Source: Gemmatimonadota bacterium
GTDB lineage: Bacteria; Gemmatimonadota; Gemmatimonadetes; Gemmatimonadales; GWC2-71-9
NCBI GenBank assembly: GCA_003220935.1
Contig: QHTT01000066.1
Coordinates: 90,990 to 154,989 of the forward strand
Direction of reading: 5' to 3'
Length of the DNA stretch: 64,000 nucleotides
Shown: positions 7,899-46,006 of the stretch, in pieces
Layout of the letters: each line of letters opens with the position of its first letter
Position numbering within the stretch: the stretch's first letter is position 1
The notes under the pieces: model-generated
Seen by the model: only the letters and a program-made list of their open reading frames with translations
Databases searched by the model: none
Told to the model about the DNA's origin: nothing
Position numbers and translations under genes: made by a program

Positions 7899-10493
7899 TC
7901 ACCAATTCAGCCAGTACGATGCCTTCACGAGGAAGGTGTTTTCGGGGTGAAGGCCAAACAGGTCGCGGAAGTCACCGGCTAGCGAGCGCGTCCCCGTCCC
8001 GCCAAGGAAGTCGCCTCGCCCTTGTGTCCAGACGACGAACAGCGTCGAGCCAGGCCGATACTCCCACCGCAGCACGACGTTGGAATTGAACTGCTTGAAG
8101 TTGAACCCACTGGCGACGGTGCCGAGGTACGGCTTGAACCGGTCGTCGTACGCCGCAGCGCGCGGCTGGGCGAGCTCGCGCGGGTTCGTGTATGTCCCCT
8201 TGCTCACGAAGGGTTGTGCGTAGACCTGGAGCGTGAGGTCGGGCGTTATCGTGTAGTCCACCCGCCCCGTCAGCGACAGGGTCTTCTGGTTCAGGTGGGC
8301 CACGGGGTAGTGTGTGGCGCCGGTGGAGTCCGTGATGGCGTCGAAGGGCTGGGTGTTGTCGATATTGTGCGTGACGCTGATGCCGATCGTGGTGTTGAAC
8401 TGCGACGCGATACGCACCGATACCTGCGAGCCTACGTTGACCGACTCGGACCGGCCGCCGTCCCCACGCCAATAGTTCGTCCACAGAGCGGGCACCACCA
8501 CCGGCCGGCTGTCTCCGTCCCACTCCGCCCAAGAGGAGACAACCGGATCCACCCGCACGGCCGGGCCCCCGCGAGCACGGCGGTCGTCGAAGGTCGGGCC
8601 GAGGTGGCCTAGTGTCGTGCCGGCGTGCAGCCACCAGCGGTTGTTGAGCTGTACGTGAACGTTGGTGTTGGCGGCGCGCTCGAGTGGCAGCCCGGCTCCG
8701 CTCCAAAATTGCCACCAGTTGAAGTTCCAAAACGCCGTCTGATACAGCGAGCTCGGATGCAGCGACTGCACCCCGAACCAGTTGTTCCAGCTCTGCTGGT
8801 CGGCGCGCAGCAGGAAGCCGAGGTCGTTCACCTCGAACCCCGGGGACCGCCGCTGATAACTCGTCTCGAACCTGGTGATCCCCCCACCCACCTTACCGAA
8901 GAGCAGCTCCTCCGCGTCGCCCGCGAGCGACGTCCGGGTCGAGTCGAATGGGAGGCCGGCGTCGGGGCGCTGGTAGTAGTGCACCGGGTCCCGCTGGGTC
9001 GCCGCGATCGCCGACGGCGTTCCCCTCACGCGACTCACGTCCACGGAACCGGAGAGCTGATAGCGGCTCCCCAAGAAGCGGTGCCGAAAGTCGAGCGCAC
9101 CCACGTACGCGCTGCGGCGGAGCGAGGCGTCTGTCAACGGGTCGAGGCTGCGGTTCACCGCTGTGGCCATGACGCCGACGCCGCTCCCGCCGCTGCGGAA
9201 GTCCTGCTGCGCGCGGATCGCCGCGTAGTTGGTGGCAGGCTCGGTGGTGCGGTCCGCGTTGCCCGCGGCGCGCTGCGTAACGGCGTCGAGCACACCGACC
9301 GTCTGCCCCCCGGGCAACCGGCCGGTCAGCTTCGCCGCGCTGGAGATCGTGGTGGCGATAGGCGACTCGGGATCGCCGCGGCCGAGTTGCGGGGCCCGCC
9401 CGATGCGGCGCGAGTAGAACAGGCGCTCACCGTTGCAGTTCACCTGGCTGCAGTTCACATCGAAGCGGAAGATCCCTGTACCCGCGACGAAGAAGGGACG
9501 GCGCTCCTGGAAGAAGGTCTCGAAGGCCGTGAGGTTGAGAACGGCGGGATCCGCCTCCACTTGCCCGAAGTCGGGGTTCACGGTTGCGTCGAGCGTCAGG
9601 TTGGACGTGAGCCCGTACTTCAGATCCGCCCCTCCGGTGAGCCTCTGGGATCGATCGAAGCCATTACCGGCTGGGACCGACACGTTCTTCGTCACCGCGT
9701 ACGGAGCGACCTCCAGCCGGCGCGGTGCGGCGAGTCCCACCAAACCGGTGACGTCCCCGAGCTGGGAGGCGAAGCCCGCCTTCGACTGCCGGTACACCGG
9801 CCAGGCGACCCGCTCCGAATAGCGTTGGATGTCGCGCCACACGGCGAACCCAAACGTGTTCGTGTCCGCATGCGCGTAGCGGAGCTGCGATAACGGTATC
9901 CGGAACTCCGCCGTCCAGCCGAGCGAGTCTACGGTCGCTGCCACCTCCCACACCCCGTCCCAGGCATCGTCCTCGTGGTTGTCGTTGTAGATCGCGTAAT
10001 CGCGCTTCACCCCGGCCGGGTTTACAGCGAACTCGTACCCGGTGCGCCGGTCGTGGTAGGAGTCAATCACGATCTTGAGCTGATCGGTCGGCGCGCGCAC
10101 GTCGCGACGCGCCAGGATTCTCAGGATGCTGTCGGGATGGGGATCGAAGGCGCGGATGAAGGCGTAGAAGTTGCGATCGTCGTAGGCGACCTTGGCTTCC
10201 GTGGGGAAGCGTGGGTCGCCGTCCTCCCGCGGCGAGAACTCGCGGAACGCCGTGATGGCGGGAGCCTCGCGCCACACCTCATCGTCGTCCTTGCCATCGA
10301 TGACCACGCCGCGGAGGGCCCGCCGGGCGACGACCGTAGTGGCGCTGGGCTCCGCCGGCTTGCCGGTTGGGGCGGTGGGGCTGCCGTACGCTTGGACGAC
10401 GACCATGACCGCGAGCATGGGCACGGCGGCTGGCATACTGGACCTTTGGGGGTACCGGGCACTTAGACGCGTCGAGGGCGGAAAAGGTTGCAT
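7899..10493 (-). CDS. CBM9-like / DUF5916 domain envelope protein
   Basis: N-terminal GKDDDEVWREAP...YDDRNFYAFIRAFD (CBM9-like). Central FFQERRPFF...LFYSRRIGRAP (DUF5916-like), with a beta-rich C-terminus ending in W. Start placed at ATG 10493 because the ORF-track start 10637 runs into lon. ATG 10436 is an alternative. Confidence 0.75.
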   Translation of the reverse strand: MQPFPPSTRLSARYPQRSSMPAAVPMLAVMVVVQAYGSPTAPTGKPAEPSATTVVARRALRGVVIDGKDDDEVWREAPAITAFREFSPREDGDPRFPTEAKVAYDDRNFYAFIRAFDPHPDSILRILARRDVRAPTDQLKIVIDSYHDRRTGYEFAVNPAGVKRDYAIYNDNHEDDAWDGVWEVAATVDSLGWTAEFRIPLSQLRYAHADTNTFGFAVWRDIQRYSERVAWPVYRQSKAGFASQLGDVTGLVGLAAPRRLEVAPYAVTKNVSVPAGNGFDRSQRLTGGADLKYGLTSNLTLDATVNPDFGQVEADPAVLNLTAFETFFQERRPFFVAGTGIFRFDVNCSQVNCNGERLFYSRRIGRAPQLGRGDPESPIATTISSAAKLTGRLPGGQTVGVLDAVTQRAAGNADRTTEPATNYAAIRAQQDFRSGGSGVGVMATAVNRSLDPLTDASLRRSAYVGALDFRHRFLGSRYQLSGSVDVSRVRGTPSAIAATQRDPVHYYQRPDAGLPFDSTRTSLAGDAEELLFGKVGGGITRFETSYQRRSPGFEVNDLGFLLRADQQSWNNWFGVQSLHPSSLYQTAFWNFNWWQFWSGAGLPLERAANTNVHVQLNNRWWLHAGTTLGHLGPTFDDRRARGGPAVRVDPVVSSWAEWDGDSRPVVVPALWTNYWRGDGGRSESVNVGSQVSVRIASQFNTTIGISVTHNIDNTQPFDAITDSTGATHYPVAHLNQKTLSLTGRVDYTITPDLTLQVYAQPFVSKGTYTNPRELAQPRAAAYDDRFKPYLGTVASGFNFKQFNSNVVLRWEYRPGSTLFVVWTQGRGDFLGGTGTRSLAGDFRDLFGLHPENTFLVKASYWLNW

Positions 10494-35657: not shown

Positions 35658-36353
35658 ATGTTCGAGCTCGGCCGCTCCACCACACACCGTCGCGGCTTTT
35701 TGGGGCGTATCGCCGCCAGCGCCGCCGCCTTTGGCCTAGGTGGGCTCGTCGCCCCGCTTGATGCAGCGGCCCGGCCCACGCGCGCCGCGACCGGGGCCTC
35801 GGCGAATCCCGAATTCGAGGCATGGCTGAACAAGATCACCGGGAAGCACAAGATGGTCTACGACGTCCCCGAGCCGAACGACGGCTTCGCGTTCGCGTGG
35901 GCCCGCGTGTTCCTCAACACCACGAACGAGACCTACGGCACCACGGATGCGGACAACACCGTAGTGATCGTGCTCCGTCATTCGGGGATTCCCTACGCGA
36001 TGGAGAGTGCGATGTGGGCGAAGTACAAGTTCGGTGACGCGTTTAAGATCACCGATCCCGCGACGAAGGGGCCCGCCATCCGGCATCCCCTCATCCATCT
36101 CAAACCCGGCGACGTGCCGTTCCCCGGCATGGGCACCGACGAGTTGCTGGCGAAGGGTGTCCTCATCGGCGTGTGCAACATCGCCCTCACCTTCAACAGT
36201 ATGCGGTTGGCGAAAGAGATGGGCATGCAGGCCGAGGCCATCAAGAAGGACTGGGTCGCCAACCTGCTCCCAGGCGTTCTGGTAGTGCCCTCGGGCGTGA
36301 TCGCGGTGAACCGCTCCCAGGAGAAGGGCTGCACGTACTGCTTCGCCGGGTGA
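35658..36353 (+). CDS. Tat-exported DsrE-like (COG1416-type) protein with a Cys-rich C-terminal tail
   Basis: 231 aa with GAGGAGG SD and twin-arginine signal HRRGFLGRIAASAAAF. IGVCNIAL...LLPGVLVVPSGVIAVNRSQEKGCTYCFAG follows the DsrE-like pattern. Confidence 0.65.
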   Translation: MFELGRSTTHRRGFLGRIAASAAAFGLGGLVAPLDAAARPTRAATGASANPEFEAWLNKITGKHKMVYDVPEPNDGFAFAWARVFLNTTNETYGTTDADNTVVIVLRHSGIPYAMESAMWAKYKFGDAFKITDPATKGPAIRHPLIHLKPGDVPFPGMGTDELLAKGVLIGVCNIALTFNSMRLAKEMGMQAEAIKKDWVANLLPGVLVVPSGVIAVNRSQEKGCTYCFAG

Positions 36354-36362
36354 AGAACAAGC

Positions 36363-36395
36363 GGGGTCCGGAGAGCCCCCGGCTCGCCGGACCCC
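36363..36395. terminator. Bidirectional hairpin between convergent genes (GGGGTCCGG ... CCGGACCCC)
   Basis: 9-bp perfect stem with a 15-nt loop in the 57-bp convergent spacer. Confidence 0.5.
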
Positions 36396-36410
36396 TGACA
36401 CGCCCGTCGC

Positions 36411-37805
36411 CTAGATCCGCTTCTTCACCTTCGGCCGAACGCGCACCCGCAGGCTCCGGTCCTCGTCGTCGATCTGGCTCAGCGCCCAACGCGCGGCATC
36501 CTGCACGTCGCGGGACTCGTCCTGGAGCGCCGCCTTGAGGGGCTCGATCGCGCGCGAGCTCTCGAGCTGGCCCAGCGCCCACGCCGCCGCGATCCGCACG
36601 GCCGGCTCGCGGTCTTTGAGCGCGGCCGCCAGGGGATCGACGGCGGCGGCATCCTCGATCTCACCCAGCGCCCACGCAGCGAGCTGGCGGGTTTCCGAAT
36701 CGGGATCTTTGAGCGCGGCGCCCAGCGGGTCGACTGCGCTCCGGTCCTCGATCTGACCGAGCGCCCAGATGGCGGCGCGTCTCACGTCGGGCGACTCGTC
36801 GTGCACCAGGGCGCCGAGGCCGCGCACGGCGCGCGGGCTCTCGATCTCCCCCAGAGCGTGCGTGGCGGCCAGCCGCACCTGGGGATCCCGATCGCGCAGC
36901 AGCGGCAGCAGCAGATCCACTCCGTCCTTGTCCTCGATCTCTCCCAGCGCCCAGACGGCCGCGCGGCGCACGTCGGGCGACGGATCTCTGAGCGCCTCGC
37001 CCAGCACAGGCACGGCGCGCGCGCTCTCGATCTCGCCCAGCGCCCAGGCCGCGACCGCTCGCACCTCGGAGGAGCGGTCCCGCAGCGCCTGGCTCAGGGG
37101 CTCAATCGCCTGGGGGCTCTGCACCTCACCCAGGGCCCACGCCGCGGCCCGCCGCACGGGAACGGCGTCGTCCGTCAGGGCGTTCGCCAACCCGCCAATT
37201 GAGCTCGAGTCCGCGATCTCCCCTAGACCGCGCGCTGCCATCGCCCGAACAGCTGCGTCCCGGTCCCGGAGCGCGTTCTGCAGCGGGCGGAGTGCGCGCC
37301 GGTCGTCCAGCTCGCCGAGACCGAGCGCCCCTGTCTCGCGCGGCCCCGGGCTGGCGTCCTCGAGCAGCGCGAGGAACGCATCATAGCTCGCCGGCGAGCG
37401 CGCCCGGCCGAGCACCCGCGCCGCGATGTTCCGCACACAGCGGTTGTCGTCGCGTAGCACCGCGCGGAACGCCCCAGAGACGACCGCGTCCCCGCCGTAC
37501 CAGGCGGGGCCGTGGCGCACGTGCACCCGGACGTGGGGCACCCGGATACCCATGCGCATCGCCATCGGCATCGGCATCGGGGTGGGCATCGGCATCGGCA
37601 TGGGTGTCGGCAACAGCCTCGGCTCCCCGGGGAAGCCCCAGGAGTTACTGATCGCCTGTCCGGCGAGGTCGCAAACGGTCGAGTCGGACGTCTTGAGAAG
37701 CGCGAGGACACGGGCGACTGCGCTTGAGTCCATGGGGGCGTCGAGCGCTCGTTGGGCGGCGAGCCGAGTCGCGACGAGCAGAAGGACGGCTGGCCAGCGG
37801 AGCAT
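36411..37805 (-). CDS. Secreted HEAT-repeat (PBS-lyase-type) protein with an N-terminal (Met-Pro)n tract
   Basis: 464 aa with signal peptide MLRWPAVLLLVATRLAAQ. It carries 10.5 contiguous 31-aa repeats of the form D..VR..AAWALGEIE....V.PL..AL. Confidence 0.85.
   Translation of the reverse strand: MLRWPAVLLLVATRLAAQRALDAPMDSSAVARVLALLKTSDSTVCDLAGQAISNSWGFPGEPRLLPTPMPMPMPTPMPMPMAMRMGIRVPHVRVHVRHGPAWYGGDAVVSGAFRAVLRDDNRCVRNIAARVLGRARSPASYDAFLALLEDASPGPRETGALGLGELDDRRALRPLQNALRDRDAAVRAMAARGLGEIADSSSIGGLANALTDDAVPVRRAAAWALGEVQSPQAIEPLSQALRDRSSEVRAVAAWALGEIESARAVPVLGEALRDPSPDVRRAAVWALGEIEDKDGVDLLLPLLRDRDPQVRLAATHALGEIESPRAVRGLGALVHDESPDVRRAAIWALGQIEDRSAVDPLGAALKDPDSETRQLAAWALGEIEDAAAVDPLAAALKDREPAVRIAAAWALGQLESSRAIEPLKAALQDESRDVQDAARWALSQIDDEDRSLRVRVRPKVKKRI
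36459..37451 (-). repeat. 93-bp (31-codon) tandem coding repeats of the HEAT array
   Basis: The recurrent DNA motif CTCGATCTC.CCCAGCGCCCA recurs every 93 bp on the plus strand. Confidence 0.8.
37551..37610 (-). repeat. Hexanucleotide (ATGCCG)n coding microsatellite encoding PTPMPMPMPTPMPMPMAMRM
   Basis: The plus strand reads (GGCATC/GGCATG) repeats. There are two blocks of three perfect ATGCCG units separated by CCCACCCCG. Confidence 0.85.
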
Positions 37806-37911
37806 GGAGGACCTCGACGGAAAGGGAGAGGGCGTGGTTGCTCACCGGGCGCCAAACAGTGGGATGTGTGGCTGGGGTGAAAGGTTGCAGGGAGCCGATT
37901 GGACACCGCTT

Positions 37912-38919
37912 TCATCTCCACCCCCGCAGGCTCCTGATGAAATCCCCCAGGACGAGGAACTTTTCGAACACCGGCACGCCCTTCCGCTTACGCCCGAACT
38001 CGGCGAACAGCTCCCGCAGCCGGCCTCGCCGCGCCACGTAGAAGCGGAACGTCTCGGCGAAATCTTCCTGTGGGTGTGTCGCGGCGTATGCGGTGACGTA
38101 GTTCGGCAGGGTCGTGGTCACACCGCGGCGCTCGAAGTCCACCCACTTCGAGTCCGCCACGCGATACACCTTGCGCACTTCGCCGAAGGCGCGGCGGAAC
38201 CGTCCCGTGCGCGTGAACGACCAGTTGTGATACAGAAACGAGTGGCCGAGCTCGTGCAAGATCAGGCCGGTGAGCATGTTCCACGAGATCTCGTCGCGCC
38301 ACCGCTTCCCAGTGACGTAGCGCCGCTCGATCTCGATGACCTTGGGCGAGCGGTGCGTCACACCCGACACACCCGGCCGGAGCAGCACGCGGTAGTTCCA
38401 GTCCTTGAGCCGTGACACGACGAGCAGCTGGCGCACGCGGCGCAGCGCCTGGCGGATGAGGTCGCGCCCGGTTGCGTCCTCGCCGCACCACGGACAGACG
38501 TCCATCCAGTCGTCCACACCCTTGCTGCAGTGCGGGCAGATGTTCTGGTAGCCGTCGTAACGCCACTTCTGGGGCCGGCCGCACCAGGGGCAGTACGCCA
38601 TCGGGTACATCACGCCACCGCCGCACCCCCAGCGGCAGCGCCGCTCGTACTTGAACCCTTTCGGAGCCTTGAGCGGCTCGGGGCTCGACGCCTCGTCCGT
38701 GATGTCGCGCCCGCACCAGGGACAGAACGAGAAGGCGTCGGAGACGATCCAGCCGCAGTAGTAGCACTCGGCGCCCGTCGCCTTCTGCGTGTCGCGCCAC
38801 TCCAGCCGCCGCCCGCAGTTGGAGCAGTGCGACCAGAAGCGCTCCAGCTCCGCACCGCACGTCGGGCAGCGCAGCTCCGGCGTCGGCACCTCGCGACGCC
38901 GCCCCACGGGCTTAGCCAT
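37912..38919 (-). CDS. Four tandem zinc-ribbons fused to a putative HExxH zinc metallopeptidase domain
   Basis: 335 aa. The ribbons are CPTC..CSNC, CYYC..CPWC, C..C..CPWC and CPHC..CPWC. The C-terminus carries LILHELGHSF and HPQEDFAETF. The start overlaps the upstream stop by 8 nt. Confidence 0.75.
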   Translation of the reverse strand: MAKPVGRRREVPTPELRCPTCGAELERFWSHCSNCGRRLEWRDTQKATGAECYYCGWIVSDAFSFCPWCGRDITDEASSPEPLKAPKGFKYERRCRWGCGGGVMYPMAYCPWCGRPQKWRYDGYQNICPHCSKGVDDWMDVCPWCGEDATGRDLIRQALRRVRQLLVVSRLKDWNYRVLLRPGVSGVTHRSPKVIEIERRYVTGKRWRDEISWNMLTGLILHELGHSFLYHNWSFTRTGRFRRAFGEVRKVYRVADSKWVDFERRGVTTTLPNYVTAYAATHPQEDFAETFRFYVARRGRLRELFAEFGRKRKGVPVFEKFLVLGDFIRSLRGWR

Positions 38920-39919
38920 GGTCGCGCTCTAGCGCTTCGTCGACGATCCGCTGGATGAACTCGGCGTAGCTCATCCCCGCTTTCTCCGCGGCGTTCGCCA
39001 TCTCGTGCTCGAACGCGATGAAGGGATTGGGATTGACCTCGAGCACGTACACTTCGTCGTCGTGCGTCAGCCGCAGGTCGATGCGCCCGTAGTCCTGGAG
39101 CCACAACGCGTGGAACGCGGTCGTGCAGATGTCCCCGATCTTCGCCGTGAGCTCGTCCGACAGGCCCTTCGCGAACACGTTCTTGATCTTCTTGCGCTTG
39201 CGGTACTCCTCGTCCCACTTCGCCTTGTAGGTCGCGATGCGGTGCTCCCCGTTTTCGGCTTCTCCGAACGTCATCTCGATGATCGGCAGCTGCTGGACCG
39301 TCTCGTTCCCGACCAGGCCGACGTACAGCTCCCGGCCCTCGATCAACTCCTCGACGATCGCCGCCTGGCGGAATTTCTCGTGGATGAACTTCACCCGCTC
39401 GGCCAAGTCCTCGTCGTTCTCGACCACCGATGCCTGCGCGATCCCGACCGACGCATCCTCGAGCAGTGGCTTCACGATCAGCGGGAACCGGAGCTCCGAC
39501 GGGCGCATCGGCTTCTCGCCGAGATGGCACTCGGCGAACGCCGGCACGCGGATCCCGTGGTAAGCGAGGATCTTCTTTGTCAGCGACTTGTTGCGCGCGA
39601 CGAGCAGGGCCGTGGGCGACGAGCCCGTGTAGCGGTAGCCGTGCATCTCCAGCACCGCCGCCAAGGCGTATTCGTGCCGCGCGTTGCGCCGGAACGACTC
39701 GCAGCCATTGAAGACGAGCTTCGGCTGGAACGTGGCGAGCCGCTCGAGCATCGGCTCGAGTTGTTCGGCCACCCCGACCATGAGGACGTCGTGTCCCTGC
39801 GTCAGCAGCGCGCGGGCCACGTCGTACTCCGCCTCTTCGACCTTCGCCTCCACGGCCTTCTTGTAGTCGGCGTCGTCCCATTCGGGGTGAAGGGTGTCGA
39901 AGAGGACGGCGATCTTCAT
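38912..39919 (-). CDS. ATP-grasp ligase (D-alanine--D-alanine ligase-like family)
   Basis: 335 aa from ATG 39919 (MKIAVLFD...). It has an ATP-grasp core (PLIVKPLLEDASVGI...ELIEGRELYVGLVG...RIDLRL...VYVLEVNPNP). The ATGA overlaps the MFS stop. Confidence 0.85.
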   Translation of the reverse strand: MKIAVLFDTLHPEWDDADYKKAVEAKVEEAEYDVARALLTQGHDVLMVGVAEQLEPMLERLATFQPKLVFNGCESFRRNARHEYALAAVLEMHGYRYTGSSPTALLVARNKSLTKKILAYHGIRVPAFAECHLGEKPMRPSELRFPLIVKPLLEDASVGIAQASVVENDEDLAERVKFIHEKFRQAAIVEELIEGRELYVGLVGNETVQQLPIIEMTFGEAENGEHRIATYKAKWDEEYRKRKKIKNVFAKGLSDELTAKIGDICTTAFHALWLQDYGRIDLRLTHDDEVYVLEVNPNPFIAFEHEMANAAEKAGMSYAEFIQRIVDEALERDHG

Positions 39920-41451
39920 CGCGGCCCTCGAACCCGCTGCATATCCCGCCCCACTGTCGTCAGCGCGATCAGGATCAGGAGCCCGCCGACTGCCCCCGCG
40001 GACGGAAGCAGCAGCATCGCGGGTCTCAGGCCGAACCGGTCGGAGAGATACCCGACGAGTGGCGGCGCGATGGCGTCGCCCGCGAGGTGCGAGAACAACA
40101 AGTAGCCGCCGATGACCGAGGCTCGCACCGCGGGCGGCACCACGTCCAGGATCACGGCCGAGAGGGGTCCGTTGTACCAGGTATAAAGGAAGAAGGTCGC
40201 GAACAGGAGCGGCACGAACAGCCGCAACTCGTCGACGAGCAGTAGGGCGGCGCACACCGGCCCGCCGAGCACGAACCCAGCCCCGGAGACCACCACGCGG
40301 CCCCCGCTCCAGCGCGTCAGCAGCCAGTCGCCGACCCGCCCTCCGAACAACCCGCCGAGCGCGCCGCCAGCGAGCCCCCAGACGCCGAACTGCCGGCCCA
40401 CGACCGCGACCGACAGGCCGTGCGCGCGCTGCATGAAGCTCGGCGCCCAGGCGATGAGCCCGTTCACGGCGAACGTCACGAGCGCGCCGCCCAAGAACAT
40501 CCAGATCAACGTCGGGGTTCGGAGCACGGTCGCGGCCGCTTGGAGAAACTCGCCGAACGCCGTCGCGGCGACCTCGCTCGCCTCGGTCGTGCGCCGCACG
40601 GCGGCGGGGACGAGCCGCACGACGGTCCAGATGATCCCGGCGCTCACGAACGCCGCGAACACCGCGGTCTCGATGCCCGGCGGCAGGCCTTCGAACAGAT
40701 CCAGCAGCCCGCTCAGCGCGGCACCGGCGAGCGCGAGCCCGATCAGCGGCTTGCCGTACTGCATCGCCTGTCGCCGCCCGCGCTCGAACCAGCCCTGGAG
40801 GGTGGTCGCCATCGGCGCGGGCGGGCGCTGCCGCGGCTCGCGCAGCCGCGAGGCGAGGATCGCCAGCAAGAAGCCCGGCACACCCATCGCCACGAACGCA
40901 GCACGCCACCCGTAGCGCTCGGCGAGCACGCCGCCCAGCCAGATACCCAGCACTCCTCCGAACGCCATACCGACGGAATAGACGCCGATCGCGAACGCCC
41001 GCCGCCGGCCCTGATAGAACTCGGCGATCAGCGCTTGCGCGGCCGGCCCGTAGCCGGCCTCGCCGACCCCCACGAGCGAGCGGCACACGAGCAGCTGCCA
41101 GAAGCGGTGGACGGCGGCTCCGAGGGCGGTGCAGGCGCTCCACAGCCCCACGCCGAACGCGATCACCGCGCGGCGCGAGCGCAGATCGCCGATCACGCCG
41201 AGCGGCAGCGCCGCGAGCGACAGCACGACGACGTACGCCGAGCCGAGCCAACCGAGCTGCTGGTCGGAGAGCGTGAGCTCGCGCTTGATGTGCTCGAACA
41301 GGGCGAAGATGACGTTGCGGTCGGTGTAGTTCAGCAGGTTGATGAGTGTGAGCAGGCCGAGGGCATAGGCCGCGTACGCCCCGGCGCCGCTGGCTTCGCG
41401 ATCCGCCCTCGCGTCCCTAAGGCCTGCGCCCAGCAGTGGCCGCCTCCGCAC
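39916..41451 (-). CDS. MFS transporter (Spinster-like)
   Basis: 511 aa and polytopic. Motifs are LNYTDRNV and GDLRSRR. The GTG start overlaps the upstream gene end by 35 nt. Confidence 0.85.
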
Positions 41452-42556
41452 GCGCGTCGCGGTCCGCCTTCGCCTCCTGGTACGCCTCAGTCAAGGCCCG
41501 CATCATGTCGGGTCGCTTGTGGTACAGCCGCTTCAGGCGCCGCGGCTTGCGCCGGGCGAGCGCGTACGCGGCGAGGATCGGAAAGCCGACCGTGTTATCG
41601 AGGTAGCAGACCACCGTGTCCGGCAGCTTGTCGGGGTCCACCTTGCCCCAACTCACCGCCTCCGAGGGCGTGGCTCCCGAGAGGCCGCCCGTGTCCGGCC
41701 GGGCGTCCGTCATCTGGAGGTAGTAGTCGTGCCCTTTTTCGCTGATGCCGAGCACTTCCTGGATCTGCGGCTCGGTTTGCAGCACAAAGTTCTTGGGGCT
41801 GCCGCCACCGATGATCAGCACGCCGCTCCGGCCGCGGTGCGTCTTCGCGTGAAACACGATCGCGGAGGTCTCGTTGACGTCGGCGCTCGCGTCGAACCGG
41901 AGCTGCGAGCCCGTCAGGGCCTGCTCCGCCACGTTCATGCCGATCGAAGAATCCCCCGGGGACGATGTGTAGATCGGGACGCCGCACTGGTGCGCCACGC
42001 CCAGCACGGATTTGCGTGCGATGCCGAGCGCCTGCTCGCGCTTGAGGATGTAGCCGCCCAGCAGGTAATGGTACTCGGCGGTGCTCATCGGCCGCTGGAA
42101 CTCCGGGCCCGCGGAGACTTCCCGAATGTAGGCGTCGGTCGAGAGCAGCACCTCATAGTCGAAGAAGATGTCGTAGATGCGGACGACGCCTTCCTCGCGC
42201 AGCTCCACGTCGTCGGCGAACGGGGTGCCGCGGTGCATCGCGAGCCCGAGGCCGAAATGGGCGTCGTGGTAGAGATTGGCGCCGGTCGAGACAATCCAGT
42301 CGACGAACCCCGCTTCGATCAACGGGATGAGAGTCGACATCCCCAGGCCCGCGGGCGTCATCGCGCCGGTGAGGCTCATCCCCACAGTCACGTCGTCCTC
42401 GAGCATACGCTCCGAGAACAGCCGGCACGCCTCAGAGAGGCGGCCGGCGTTGTAGGCGAGAAACGCGTTGTCTACGAGCTCCGGGACCGTCTCCCGGCCG
42501 GTGATGGGCTTCGGGTCGATGCGCTGGCCGCGCAGAAAGTCCTTGCGTGTGGTCAT
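41417..42556 (-). CDS. Deoxyhypusine synthase-like family protein
   Basis: Family-typical segments are [34 protein letters not shown] and [11 protein letters not shown] 42556 lies 4 nt after the LOG stop and is preferred over ORF-track start 42637. Confidence 0.8.
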
Positions 42557-42560
42557 GGCG

Positions 42561-43307
42561 TCAGGCGTCTCCGTCGATGGCCGGGAGCTCTCTGCTGCGG
42601 CGCTCCCGGGCCTGCCGGATGATGGCGACCGCGTCACGCGCGGTATCGGTCGTGTGGAACAGATCCAGGTCGGTTGTCGCGATCTTTCCTTCCCCGGCGA
42701 CCCGATCGCGCAGCCAGTCCGTCATCCCCATCCAGTACGCCCGGCCGAACAGTATCACGGGAAAGTGACGGACCTTGCCGGTCTGGATCAGGGTCAGCGC
42801 TTCGAACAGCTCGTCCATGGTGCCGAAGCCACCGGGGAAGACGATGAACGCCGTCGAGTACTTCACGAACATGGTCTTGCGCACGAAGAAATAACGGAAA
42901 TTGATGGCCCGCTCCACGTAGGGGTTGAGCCCCTGCTCGAACGGCAGCTCGATGTTGCAGCCGATGGAGAGGCCGTTCCCCTCCTGGCAGCCGCGATTGG
43001 CCGCCTCCATGATGCCCGGGCCACCCCCCGTGATGATGGGGAAGCCCTCCTCGGCGAGCATGCGCGCGGTCTCCACCGCCTTCTCGTAGTACGGGTCGTC
43101 GACGGGCGTGCGCGCCGAGCCGAAGATCGTTACCGCGTTGTACACGTCCGAGAGCGTGTCGAACCCTTCGACGAACTCTCCCATGATGCGGAGCACCCGC
43201 CAGGAGTCGGTCCTCGTGAACGCGCGGCGCTCACGGGGGAGCTGCGTGAGGAGTCGTTCGTCCTCAGTGACGGCTTTGCGCTGCGAGCCGCTCGAGTGCT
43301 GCGACAT
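42561..43307 (-). CDS. LOG-family (TIGR00730) Rossmann-fold nucleotide-binding protein
   Basis: Motifs are [35 protein letters not shown] and [12 protein letters not shown] 43307 is used; GTG 43271 is an alternative. Confidence 0.85.
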
Positions 43308-44445
43308 AGTCGTCCTGCACGTTGTAGAAGAAGGGGGAAAGACGGACGTGACCGGGCCGCGCATCCGCGATGATCCCCGCCGCCGCAAGGTGGCGCACCC
43401 GGTCCGCGGGGTCCTCCATCGGGAGCATGACGATCGCCGAGCGGTCCTCCCCCCGAGCGGCCACCTTGGGCCGGAGGCCCATGGCCCGAGCGCGCGCGAT
43501 CAGGTCCTCGGTGAGCGCGGCGGTCACGTCGCGGATCGCAGGCACGCCGATCTCCTCGATATAACCGAGGCCCCCGAGCTGGGCGTAGATCGCGGCGAGC
43601 GATGGGGTGCCCAGCTCGAAACGCCGGGCATCCTCGTGCCACTCGAGCGACCGCGGCTCGAAGGCGAACTGGTTCCTGTGGCCGAACCAGCCGGCGATCG
43701 CCGGCGCGAGGGTCCGGGCCAGCTCGGCTCGCACGTACAGGAACACGATCCCGGGGCCACCCAGCAGCCACTTGAGCCCGCCCGCGGTGAGGAAGTCGAC
43801 GCCCGCCGCCGGCGCGTCGCACGGCACTTGTCCCACCGACTGATACGCGTCGATCAAGCACAGGGCGCCTTTGGCGTGCGCCGCGTCCGCGACGGCGCGG
43901 ATATCCTGGATCGCGCCGCTTGTGAAGTAGACGTGCGAGGTCGCGACCAGCGCGGTGCGCTCGTCCACGGCGCGGCCGATCGCCTCGACCGGTACGGAGA
44001 TCTGGTCGGGGCTCTCCACGACCACGAGCTCGATCCCGCGCCCACGCTTCGCGAGCCACTGGTAGGCGACGGTCGGGAAGTCGAGCGACGTCACCACGAC
44101 CTTGGGGCGACGCACATAGTCGAGCGACTCGGCCAGCACGGAGAGGGCTACGGAGACACTGGGCGCGAGCGCGATCGCTTCCGGCGCCGCACCGATCACG
44201 CGGGCGTAGCGACCGCGCAGCTCCGAGAGGGCGGCCCACCACACGTCATACCACGCGGACGCCCCGCGCGCCTGCCACAAGTCGACGAACTCCACCACCT
44301 TGTTGCGGGCGCGCTCGCCCAGCGCACCGAGCGAGCAGGTATTGAGGTAGATGCGGTCCCGAAAGATCGGGAACTCGCTGCGGTACCGGGCGAGCCGGTG
44401 CGCCCCGGCCTGGTGGCCCGTCGTCAGGCCGCTTGCGAACGTCAT
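43264..44445 (-). CDS. Aminotransferase class-V fold PLP-dependent enzyme (kynureninase / cysteine-desulfurase-like)
   Basis: 393 aa. YLNTCSLG at the N-terminus, LIDAYQSVG, and a candidate PLP-lysine in LTAGGLKWLLGGPG. Confidence 0.8.
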   Translation of the reverse strand: MTFASGLTTGHQAGAHRLARYRSEFPIFRDRIYLNTCSLGALGERARNKVVEFVDLWQARGASAWYDVWWAALSELRGRYARVIGAAPEAIALAPSVSVALSVLAESLDYVRRPKVVVTSLDFPTVAYQWLAKRGRGIELVVVESPDQISVPVEAIGRAVDERTALVATSHVYFTSGAIQDIRAVADAAHAKGALCLIDAYQSVGQVPCDAPAAGVDFLTAGGLKWLLGGPGIVFLYVRAELARTLAPAIAGWFGHRNQFAFEPRSLEWHEDARRFELGTPSLAAIYAQLGGLGYIEEIGVPAIRDVTAALTEDLIARARAMGLRPKVAARGEDRSAIVMLPMEDPADRVRHLAAAGIIADARPGHVRLSPFFYNVQDDYVAALERLAAQSRH

Positions 44446-44505
44446 AGGCGGTCAATATACAGGAGGAAAAGCACGGTCGACACGTCCCGACGTAGATTCC
44501 GTCGC

Positions 44506-44772
44506 ATGCCGTCCCCCACCCGCTGGTCGGCCCTGTTCGCGCGCCTCGCGCTCCGCGCCGCGGTCAACCCTCGATTGGCCCTCGACCTGTTGCGTCTCGT
44601 CTGGAGCTTCCGGGCGCGTGACTGGTACCGCCGCCCGCCGTTCTTACCGCTGCCGCCGGGTGAGTACACCCGCTGGCGCATGCTCACCGCCTACGGCGAC
44701 GAGCACGCCGTCCCGCCGGTCGAGGACGTCATCAACTTCGCCCGCTGGCGGCGCGAGACGATGCATGTATGA
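44506..44772 (+). CDS. Small hypothetical protein (Trp/Arg-rich)
   Basis: 88 aa. The ATG lies 7 nt after a TAGATT hexamer. The stop overlaps the queG ATG (ATGA). Confidence 0.55.
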   Translation: MPSPTRWSALFARLALRAAVNPRLALDLLRLVWSFRARDWYRRPPFLPLPPGEYTRWRMLTAYGDEHAVPPVEDVINFARWRRETMHV

Positions 44773-45746
44773 CTAAAGACGTCGAGCAGAATCGTCGCGC
44801 GAAGACGTCACCCAACATCGTCGCGCTGAAACGTCGAGCGCTCGAGCTCGGGTTCGACGCCGTGGGAGTGGCCCCGCTCGAGCCGAATGCGCACGCCGGC
44901 GAACTCGACGCATGGCTCGCCGCAGGCTACGCCGGCACGATGAGCTACCTGCACCGCCAGTCAGCCAAGCGAAAGCAGCCGGCCCGTATCATGCCGGGAG
45001 CCAAGGTCGCGGTCGTCACGCTCACAAACTATTTCCATGGGTCGACCGACCCCGGGGCCCTGCCCCGGGGTTCTGCCAAGGTCGCCCAGTACGCCCAGTC
45101 CGCCGACTACCATCGCGTCCTCGGCCACCGCCTGGAGCAGCTCGCCGCCGCGATTCGTGACATCGCGCCCTGGGCTCAGACGCGCGTGTATGTGGACGCC
45201 GGACCGGTCCCCGAGCGCGAGCTCGCGCAGCGCGCGGGCCTCGGCTGGATCGCGAAGAACATGATGCTCATCCACCCCGAGCTCGGCTCGTTCACCTTCA
45301 TCGGGGTCATTCTCACCGACGCTCCCCTCGCGCCCGATCTCCCGTTCCAGGCGGATCGCTGCGGCACCTGCCGCCGCTGCCTCGACGCCTGCCCCACGGA
45401 TGCCTTCGTCGCACCGCACGTGATGGACGCGCGACGGTGCATTTCCTACCTCACGATCGAGCACCGCGGGGACTTCACAGCGGACGAGCGGGCGCTCGTC
45501 GGTGATTGGCTGTTCGGCTGCGACGTCTGCCAGGATGTGTGTCCGTGGAACGTACAGTTCGCCCGGGCGACCGCCGATCCGGCGCTCGCTCCTCGCTCAG
45601 ACCTCGCCGCCCCCGACGCACACGAGTTCCTGGAAATGGACGAGGAAACGTTCGCGCAACGCTACGGCGACACGCCGCTCGAGCGGCCGGGCCGCCGCGG
45701 GATGCGGCGCAATGCCGCCGCCACGCTCGGCGGGACGGGGCCGTGA
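44769..45746 (+). CDS. queG: Epoxyqueuosine reductase
   Basis: 325 aa. Motifs are YAQSADYH, GLGWIAKN, two 4Fe-4S motifs (CGTCRRCLDACP, CDVCQDVCP) and CISYLTIE. Confidence 0.92.
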   Translation: MTKDVEQNRRAKTSPNIVALKRRALELGFDAVGVAPLEPNAHAGELDAWLAAGYAGTMSYLHRQSAKRKQPARIMPGAKVAVVTLTNYFHGSTDPGALPRGSAKVAQYAQSADYHRVLGHRLEQLAAAIRDIAPWAQTRVYVDAGPVPERELAQRAGLGWIAKNMMLIHPELGSFTFIGVILTDAPLAPDLPFQADRCGTCRRCLDACPTDAFVAPHVMDARRCISYLTIEHRGDFTADERALVGDWLFGCDVCQDVCPWNVQFARATADPALAPRSDLAAPDAHEFLEMDEETFAQRYGDTPLERPGRRGMRRNAAATLGGTGP

Positions 45747-46006
45747 GCGAGGAGATCAGCGAGATCCAGCGCCGGCTGGCGGACGGGCTCGCCAAGATCG
45801 ATCCCCACCACCGTCTCCTCGGCCGGCCGGTGCATTACCGGATCATCGATGGGACGACCCTGGAGATTACCTACCGGGACGTGCCGGGGATCGCCGAAGG
45901 CGAGGTCCTCGGCGTCAAGCGGCTGCTCCCACACGACTGTTTCTGCAGCGTGTCGCCACAGACGGCGGAGTGCGTGACGGTGCGATTCGTGGTGTCGCTG
46001 AAATAG
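45743..46006 (+). CDS. Small hypothetical protein
   Basis: 87 aa. The GTG start overlaps the queG TGA (GTGA). Composition looks natural. Confidence 0.5.
   Translation: MSEEISEIQRRLADGLAKIDPHHRLLGRPVHYRIIDGTTLEITYRDVPGIAEGEVLGVKRLLPHDCFCSVSPQTAECVTVRFVVSLK

Follow-up and report, generated by a model that had tools for sequence, protein, structure and literature searches.

A six-gene array of Gemmatimonadales that probably joins a SpeY-type homospermidine gene to a separable ligase-peptidase pair

Does a row of tightly coupled genes from common protein families make up one pathway, or does it bring together units that act on their own elsewhere? This question is raised by six minus-strand genes of a Gemmatimonadota bacterium (NCBI GenBank assembly GCA_003220935.1, contig QHTT01000066.1, positions 90,990 to 154,989), whose 64,000 nucleotides are referred to below as the window. 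The genes encode a pyridoxal 5'-phosphate (PLP) enzyme, a LOG protein, a deoxyhypusine synthase (DHS)-like protein, a major facilitator superfamily (MFS) transporter, an ATP-grasp ligase and a zinc-ribbon metallopeptidase. An earlier note, made from the sequence of the window, had read them as one dedicated biosynthetic and export module. Here we report a comparative analysis of this array in related and distant genomes. The explanation that we favour, with somewhat better than even confidence, is that the array is a lineage-specific, probably leaderless polycistronic unit joining two units that work independently elsewhere. One of them would comprise the PLP, LOG, DHS-like and MFS genes and be centred on a SpeY-type DHS homologue; the other would be an autonomous ligase-peptidase pair spread through Gemmatimonadota.

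Conservation and separability of the array

The six coupled genes stand exactly where the earlier note had placed them (Table 1). On the minus strand, all six open reading frames (ORFs) are free of internal stops, and the same six genes are returned by independent gene calls on identical public contigs (including GCA_009771695.1). Neighbouring genes overlap by 44 nt (PLP/LOG), 35 nt (DHS/MFS) and 8 nt (ATP-grasp/peptidase), or through an ATGA sequence (MFS/ATP-grasp), and the LOG and DHS-like genes are 4 nt apart. The GTG at 41451 is the sole in-frame start of the MFS gene between the upstream stop and 200 nt into the ORF. The proposed family memberships likewise held in Pfam and NCBIfam profile searches of all six proteins.

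Tight coupling is weak evidence of shared function here, because genes of this genome usually overlap at their starts and stops: beyond the cluster, the 21-kb locus has 11 same-strand junctions, and 6 of them are overlaps too, some between unrelated genes (e.g., Peptidase_M20/Metallophos). The window has a G+C content of 65-75%, and in a genome so compact and GC-rich, tight translational coupling alone is not enough to delimit a pathway.

Relatives of the peptidase were found in about 431 genomes by a scan of one genome per species. The neighbourhood counts that follow refer to the best 80 of these 431 (peptidase identity at least 77%), nearly all of them labelled Gemmatimonadales or Gemmatimonadota, in which the proteins of the window were located by tblastn. 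Relatives of the window genes are in metagenome-assembled genomes labelled Gemmatimonadales or Gemmatimonadetes, mostly from soil. The complete six-gene order is found in 52 of the 59 loci with enough upstream DNA; among the other seven, four are without the ATP-grasp gene, two without the PLP gene, and one without both the PLP and MFS genes. The PLP gene is absent from loci L036, L041, and L042, and the MFS gene from L042 and L044. The 44-nt PLP/LOG overlap is kept in 55 of 58 loci, and the ATP-grasp gene is directly followed by the peptidase gene in 69 of 70. The divergent and unrelated gene queG is conserved just as well as the array, so the whole region appears to be syntenic by descent.

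At the MFS/ATP-grasp junction, the spacing runs from a 4-nt overlap up to a separation of about 127 nt, and in many relatives the spacer holds a hairpin of about 100 nt made of inverted tandem heptamers, (GCGGAAT)n/(ATTCCGC)n. Two examples, at 8878-8975 of L008 and 8877-8982 of L018, have folding energies of -65 and -81 kcal/mol (z scores of -3.7 and -5.4). Because the spacing is variable and often filled by this hairpin, we regard the junction as a seam within the array. The window lacks this hairpin (0 matches when up to 2 mismatches are allowed), and in the relatives it may be a repetitive extragenic palindrome (REP)-like element, a terminator or an RNA-processing site.

On the far side of this seam, the ATP-grasp and peptidase genes also occur by themselves. 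Among seven peptidase relatives at 65-75% identity, six are encoded in overlapping ATP-grasp/peptidase pairs in unrelated contexts (L087, L088, L089, L090, L099, and L100), with no DHS, LOG, PLP or matching MFS gene nearby and no conserved third gene beside the pair in these six loci. The seventh, L098, has LOG, DHS and peptidase genes only, beside queG. With the stand-alone type of ATP-grasp gene as anchor, a scan of metagenomes yielded 80 loci, 59 of them with room downstream, and the peptidase gene follows immediately in 55 of these 59; none of the 80 has a PLP, LOG or DHS gene within 7 kb. In L100, two ORFs of 214 and 162 amino acids take the place of one ATP-grasp gene (positions 7936-9017), either through a frameshift or because it is a pseudogene, next to an intact peptidase gene.

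The earlier note had named a gene order not conserved beyond close relatives as an outcome that would speak against its single module. With the DHS-like gene and the peptidase and ATP-grasp genes as anchors, the six-gene order proved to be confined to one Gemmatimonadales lineage (the loci with at least 77% peptidase identity) and is not kept beyond close relatives. Since the order is lineage-confined, genes are individually missing, and the parts occur separately elsewhere, the single-pathway reading is unsupported.

Table 1. Features of the array and its flanks (positions in the window)
Feature	Positions	Strand	Length	Remark
Class V PLP enzyme	43264-44445	-	393 aa	gene 1
Type II LOG	42561-43307	-	248 aa	gene 2
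SpeY-type DHS-like protein	41417-42556	-	379 aa	gene 3
MFS transporter	39916-41451	-	511 aa	gene 4
Ddl-fold ATP-grasp ligase	38912-39919	-	335 aa	gene 5; first of the autonomous pair
Zinc-ribbon Peptidase_Mx metallopeptidase	37912-38919	-	335 aa	gene 6; second of the pair
TGTATATT extended -10-like box	44454-44461	-		8 nt before the ATG of the PLP gene; conserved across loci
Small ORF upstream of queG	44506-44772	+	88 aa	60 nt from the start of the PLP gene
HEAT-like repeat protein	36411-37805	-	464 aa	106 nt downstream of the peptidase gene

The SpeY-type gene and its neighbours

The DHS-like protein is assigned by family membership to the SpeY-type homospermidine biosynthesis proteins. It scores 547.7 bits against the NCBIfam equivalog NF001980.1 ('homospermidine biosynthesis protein', cut-off 450) and matches Pfam DS with an E-value of 4e-68, and it has the motif EAVSWGK, which we take to be the catalytic-lysine motif of DHS. 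A canonical deoxyhypusine synthase, which modifies eIF5A or aIF5A, was rejected by all three corresponding models (TIGR00321, 171.9 vs 304 bits; NF002006, 227 vs 434; NF002630, 212.7 vs 364). The polyamine chemistry that the earlier note had suspected is indeed represented, and this gene maps to a described pathway, the SpeY route. In that route, SpeY couples two agmatines to form N1,N9-bis(guanidino)homospermidine, and a ureohydrolase then releases homospermidine (Li et al., J Biol Chem 2026, PMC13625781). By family membership, the enzyme of the window would carry out the first of these reactions with NAD, and a ureohydrolase encoded elsewhere would convert the bis-guanidino product to homospermidine.

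The genomic contexts of more distant homologues point to the same chemistry. A library-wide search returned 364 representatives at E <= 1e-30, and members passing NF001980 extend down to 39-42% identity to the DHS-like protein. The loci of four representatives were examined: the gene stands alone at 63% identity, overlaps an Orn/Arg decarboxylase gene at 52%, lies in the order PvlArgDC, DHS, arginase family, DHS at 48%, and follows PvlArgDC at 45%. None of the four has a LOG, class V PLP, ATP-grasp or Peptidase_Mx gene. The homologues at 45-52% identity thus have the arginine decarboxylase (ADC) and agmatinase neighbours that the SpeY paper describes. Natural fusions of an arginase-family domain with DHS and of an AdoMetDC-family domain with DHS (P0267, 698 aa, and P0255, 581 aa) tie this clade to agmatine and polyamine metabolism. 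Matches to the DHS-like protein in the plasmid collection were distant only. As side observations from these searches, L095 (1360-5575) has an arginase-family gene flanked by two DHS-like paralogues and a small GIY-YIG gene between PvlArgDC and the first DHS gene. Two further DHS-like proteins, P0121 (645 aa) and P0138 (725 aa), carry inteins at about positions 295-310 of the DHS domain, with Intein_splicing and Hint domains and, in one of them, an HNH endonuclease.

The genes next to the SpeY-type gene set the array apart from the clusters of Li et al.: the type II LOG, kynureninase-like PLP enzyme and MFS neighbours of the window occur in none of them, and a search of the text of PMC13625781 found no mention of Gemmatimonadota or LOG. 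A literature search combining Gemmatimonas with homospermidine returned nothing relevant. By annotation, the SpeY route is thus extended to soil Gemmatimonadales, with neighbours that differ from every cluster in that paper. In the explanation that we favour, the LOG, kynureninase-like and MFS proteins would be clade-specific neighbours with no shown link to SpeY chemistry.

By its profile and structure matches, the PLP enzyme is a class V, kynureninase-like protein. It matches Pfam Aminotran_5 (E-value 3e-33), and its best solved relative is a bacterial kynureninase (1qz9, E-value 4e-31). It remains under every NCBIfam equivalog cut-off, and two more specific identities were rejected: kynureninase proper (TIGR01814, 92.9 bits vs a cut-off of 246.4) and cysteine desulfurase, for which all SufS, IscS and NifS models stay far under cut-off (e.g., SufS, 101.9 vs 475). 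The only cysteines of the protein are C37, C195, and C209, so that a desulfurase-type cysteine is missing from the C-terminal active-site region. A homologue search returned relatives of at least 80% identity only.

The LOG protein is classed by its profile and structure matches as an ordinary type II LOG of the nucleotide 5'-monophosphate phosphoribohydrolase family. It scores 147 bits against TIGR00730 (cut-off 96.35), contains the motif PGGFGTMDE, and has as solved relatives 5zi9 (E-value 3e-85) and 5wq3 (5e-76), both named cytokinin riboside 5'-monophosphate phosphoribohydrolase. With the type II LOGs 5zi9, 5wq3 and TT1465/1wek it shares full-length similarity (E-values 3e-85 to 4e-64), the PGGxGTxxE motif and the TIGR00730 score above cut-off, whereas only this Gemmatimonadales lineage has the 44-nt overlap with the PLP gene and speY as a neighbour. 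The MFS protein matches Pfam MFS_1 (E-value 2e-54); no NCBIfam model was above its cut-off for this protein, and no specific transporter model matched it.

The ligase-peptidase pair

The ATP-grasp gene and the gene for the four-zinc-ribbon Peptidase_Mx protein form the only uncharacterised element of the array. The ligase had been described as resembling D-Ala-D-Ala ligase (Ddl). This holds for the fold, given a match to Pfam Dala_Dala_lig_C with an E-value of 1e-27, but the protein scores 127.6 bits against a Ddl cut-off of 243. The ATP/Mg residues of Ddl are kept, the N-terminal (substrate) domain cannot be aligned to Ddl, and S150, Y216, S281, and L282 of E. coli DdlB, presumably the D-Ala-binding positions, align with A, W, H, and E. 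Unlike Ddl, the protein falls under all Ddl cut-offs and its gene pairs with a peptidase gene rather than with cell-wall genes. By these comparisons, the protein is a Ddl-fold amide ligase that is not a Ddl. The RimK family was rejected as well (TIGR00768, 36.5 bits vs a cut-off of 143.4), and neither the ligase nor the peptidase has a Pfam match to glutathionylspermidine synthase or CHAP at E <= 0.01.

The closest ATP-grasp relative outside Gemmatimonadota (about 33% identity) is encoded by the Thioflavicoccus mobilis plasmid pTHIMO01 (L097, 3548-7894), as the last gene of an apparent operon with genes for a diaminobutyrate transaminase, SbnA and an SbnB-like ornithine cyclodeaminase; a KamA-family radical SAM gene is convergent to it. 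The operon looks like an uncharacterised diamino-acid ligation cluster. Another distant ATP-grasp relative adjoins CapA.

The peptidase is a cytoplasmic protein, not a lipoprotein. It combines four tandem CxxC...CPWCG zinc ribbons (residues ~18-145) with a Peptidase_Mx gluzincin domain, in which HELGH (222-226) is followed 59 residues later by EDFAETFR (285-292). Pfam DZR and Peptidase_Mx (PF15887; 44.6 vs 27 bits) are both above their gathering scores, and 26 homologues show no variation in any of the cysteines, in HELGH or in EDFAETFR. The arrangement of HExxH and, about 59 residues later, EDF(A/V)E is shared with the substrate-import-associated zinc metallohydrolase lipoproteins of Peptidase_Mx/TIGR04549 (9urd), whereas the window peptidase is cytoplasmic, has four N-terminal zinc ribbons and reaches 22.4 bits against the TIGR04549 cut-off of 75. 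In the PDB, neither sequence nor profile searches found a close solved structure for the peptidase, the weak matches being 9urd (E-value 0.003) and the zinc-ribbon protein 2k5c. The plasmid collection held no match to the peptidase, and our literature search found no paper characterising Peptidase_Mx/PF15887.

In the explanation that we favour, the Ddl-fold ligase would form an amide bond via an acyl-phosphate intermediate, and the cytoplasmic HExxH...E gluzincin would most likely remove or trim the bond made by the ligase, with its four N-terminal zinc ribbons probably docking it on a macromolecular partner. By analogy, the pair would act as a write/erase system in the style of RimK-type tailing or of glutathionylspermidine synthetase/amidase. 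The likeness to these two systems, the first being RimK with its associated protease, is that the gene of an ATP-dependent amide ligase is accompanied by one for a hydrolase that might reverse the bond. Set beside known ligase/hydrolase pairs, the pair described here is a conserved, translationally coupled unit; the candidate hydrolase is a four-zinc-ribbon Peptidase_Mx gluzincin instead of a CHAP amidase or an aspartic protease, and by sequence the proteins of the window belong to neither family. What the analysis isolates is one small unknown: a ligase-peptidase pair that is conserved and occurs in about 431 species genomes. Of the genomes examined, nearly all are labelled Gemmatimonadales or Gemmatimonadota. 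Should the pair prove to modify its target reversibly, it would have moderate interest for understanding a soil phylum that is abundant and little studied.

Among the alternatives, the one that survives best is that the pair is a protein or peptide tailing system, in which a RimK- or tubulin-ligase-like enzyme adds residues and the peptidase trims them, with no relation to polyamines and an incidental position in the operon. That a cytoplasmic peptidase has four invariant zinc ribbons does suggest docking on a protein or nucleic acid, the pair is self-contained in its six stand-alone loci, and the TIGR00768 score is a weak RimK-family signal. We nevertheless consider this alternative unlikely, given that the same score misses the RimK cut-off, that no candidate substrate gene is conserved beside the pair, that distant relatives of the ligase are found in small-molecule contexts, and that in several genomes the peptidase persists with no adjacent ligase.

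Several observations weigh against the explanation that we favour. The peptidase gene remains beside LOG and DHS where the ATP-grasp gene, or both the ATP-grasp and MFS genes, are gone (L047, L077, L082, L086, and L098), and this retention might be a sign that the peptidase is tied to the polyamine genes by more than syntenic inheritance. The DHS-like protein fits NF001980 and not NF002699, the model named for G44G synthase (163 bits vs a cut-off of 500). When the 64-kb window and the 80 related loci were searched by tblastn with PvlArgDC, Orn/Arg decarboxylase and arginase-family queries, nothing matched; with neither ADC nor agmatinase there, the SpeY pathway is locally incomplete, and its remainder must lie elsewhere in the genome. 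Finally, an AlphaFold2 model of the peptidase, built from the 26-sequence alignment, has a mean predicted local distance difference test (pLDDT) score of 49 and is too poor to use.

The retention of the peptidase beside LOG and DHS after loss of the ATP-grasp or MFS gene would also suit a fused operon that serves one pathway. By analogy with glutathionylspermidine metabolism, the SpeY product, homospermidine or its bis-guanidino precursor, would be ligated by the ATP-grasp enzyme to the carboxylate of an amino acid or peptide, the peptidase would act as the amidase, and the MFS protein would transport the conjugate. The one conserved promoter and the closely joined genes of 52 of the 59 loci agree with such a pathway, and the diamino-acid cluster around the nearest non-Gemmatimonadota relative of the ligase makes an amine-bearing small-molecule substrate plausible for this ATP-grasp subfamily. 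On the other side, the pair is autonomous, with neither DHS nor LOG nor PLP genes nearby, in 6 of 7 more distant genomes and 55 of 59 metagenome loci, SpeY homologues do without these partners in the four loci examined elsewhere, and single genes drop out of the array. Moreover, the synteny extends equally to unrelated neighbours, overlapping genes are frequent in this genome, and Pfam gave no match to glutathionylspermidine synthase or the CHAP amidase. We regard one pathway as improbable, and slightly more so the more specific proposal that the pair is an undescribed reversible amide-tagging (write/erase) system of Gemmatimonadota recruited behind speY, for a conjugate of homospermidine or bis-guanidino-homospermidine handled by the MFS protein, which we hold to be decidedly doubtful. 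A functional merger of the two units in this lineage, for instance around a homospermidine conjugate, is possible, and nothing that we tested supports it positively.

Transcription and surrounding genes

The six genes are probably co-transcribed from a promoter directly before the PLP gene, where the upstream intergenic space is only 60 nt. The minus strand before the first ATG reads TGTATATT-GACCGCCT-ATG. The box TGTATATT and its 8-nt spacing to the ATG show little or no variation among 46 distinct upstream sequences of related loci, the flanks of which diverge. This conservation of box and spacing while the flanks vary supports the leaderless-type promoter proposed by the earlier note, and TGTATATT is likely to be the promoter of a leaderless transcript. 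A strict two-hexamer sigma-70 scan detected no promoter, and a terminator scan was uninformative.

That the array is a mere syntenic string with internal promoters, its six genes not co-expressed, is very improbable: the lack of an informative sigma-70 consensus promoter or intrinsic terminator and the structured MFS/ATP-grasp spacer of 100-130 nt in many relatives, which could terminate or process transcripts, would fit it, but one strongly conserved -10-like box precedes the first gene, and every junction of the window is an overlap or a 4-nt gap, which leaves no room for conventional internal promoters.

Elsewhere in the window, a TANNNT hexamer lies 5-9 nt upstream of ATG or GTG at five other candidate in-frame starts within long ORFs with high G+C at third codon positions, namely 20284 (-), 25169 (+), 61142 (-), 59107 (-), and 49489 (-). 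Leaderless-type starts may thus be common in this genome.

No Rfam RNA family was found in 36000-46000. A search for anti-phage defence systems with PADLOC gave only generic class V matches (SspA and DndA) and a marginal LOG match, and nothing for the DHS-like, MFS, ATP-grasp or peptidase proteins. Next after the peptidase gene comes one whose product has a hydrophobic N-terminus, numerous HEAT-like repeats ('AAWALGEI') and a low-complexity (PM)n stretch; this placement is kept in the closest relatives only, and no terminator-like fold lies between the two genes. On the other flank, the 88-aa ORF on the opposite strand shares a 4-nt overlap with the start codon of queG. Its product has no Pfam match and is 67-100% identical in 66 related loci, and because of this conservation we take the ORF to be a real small gene coupled to queG.

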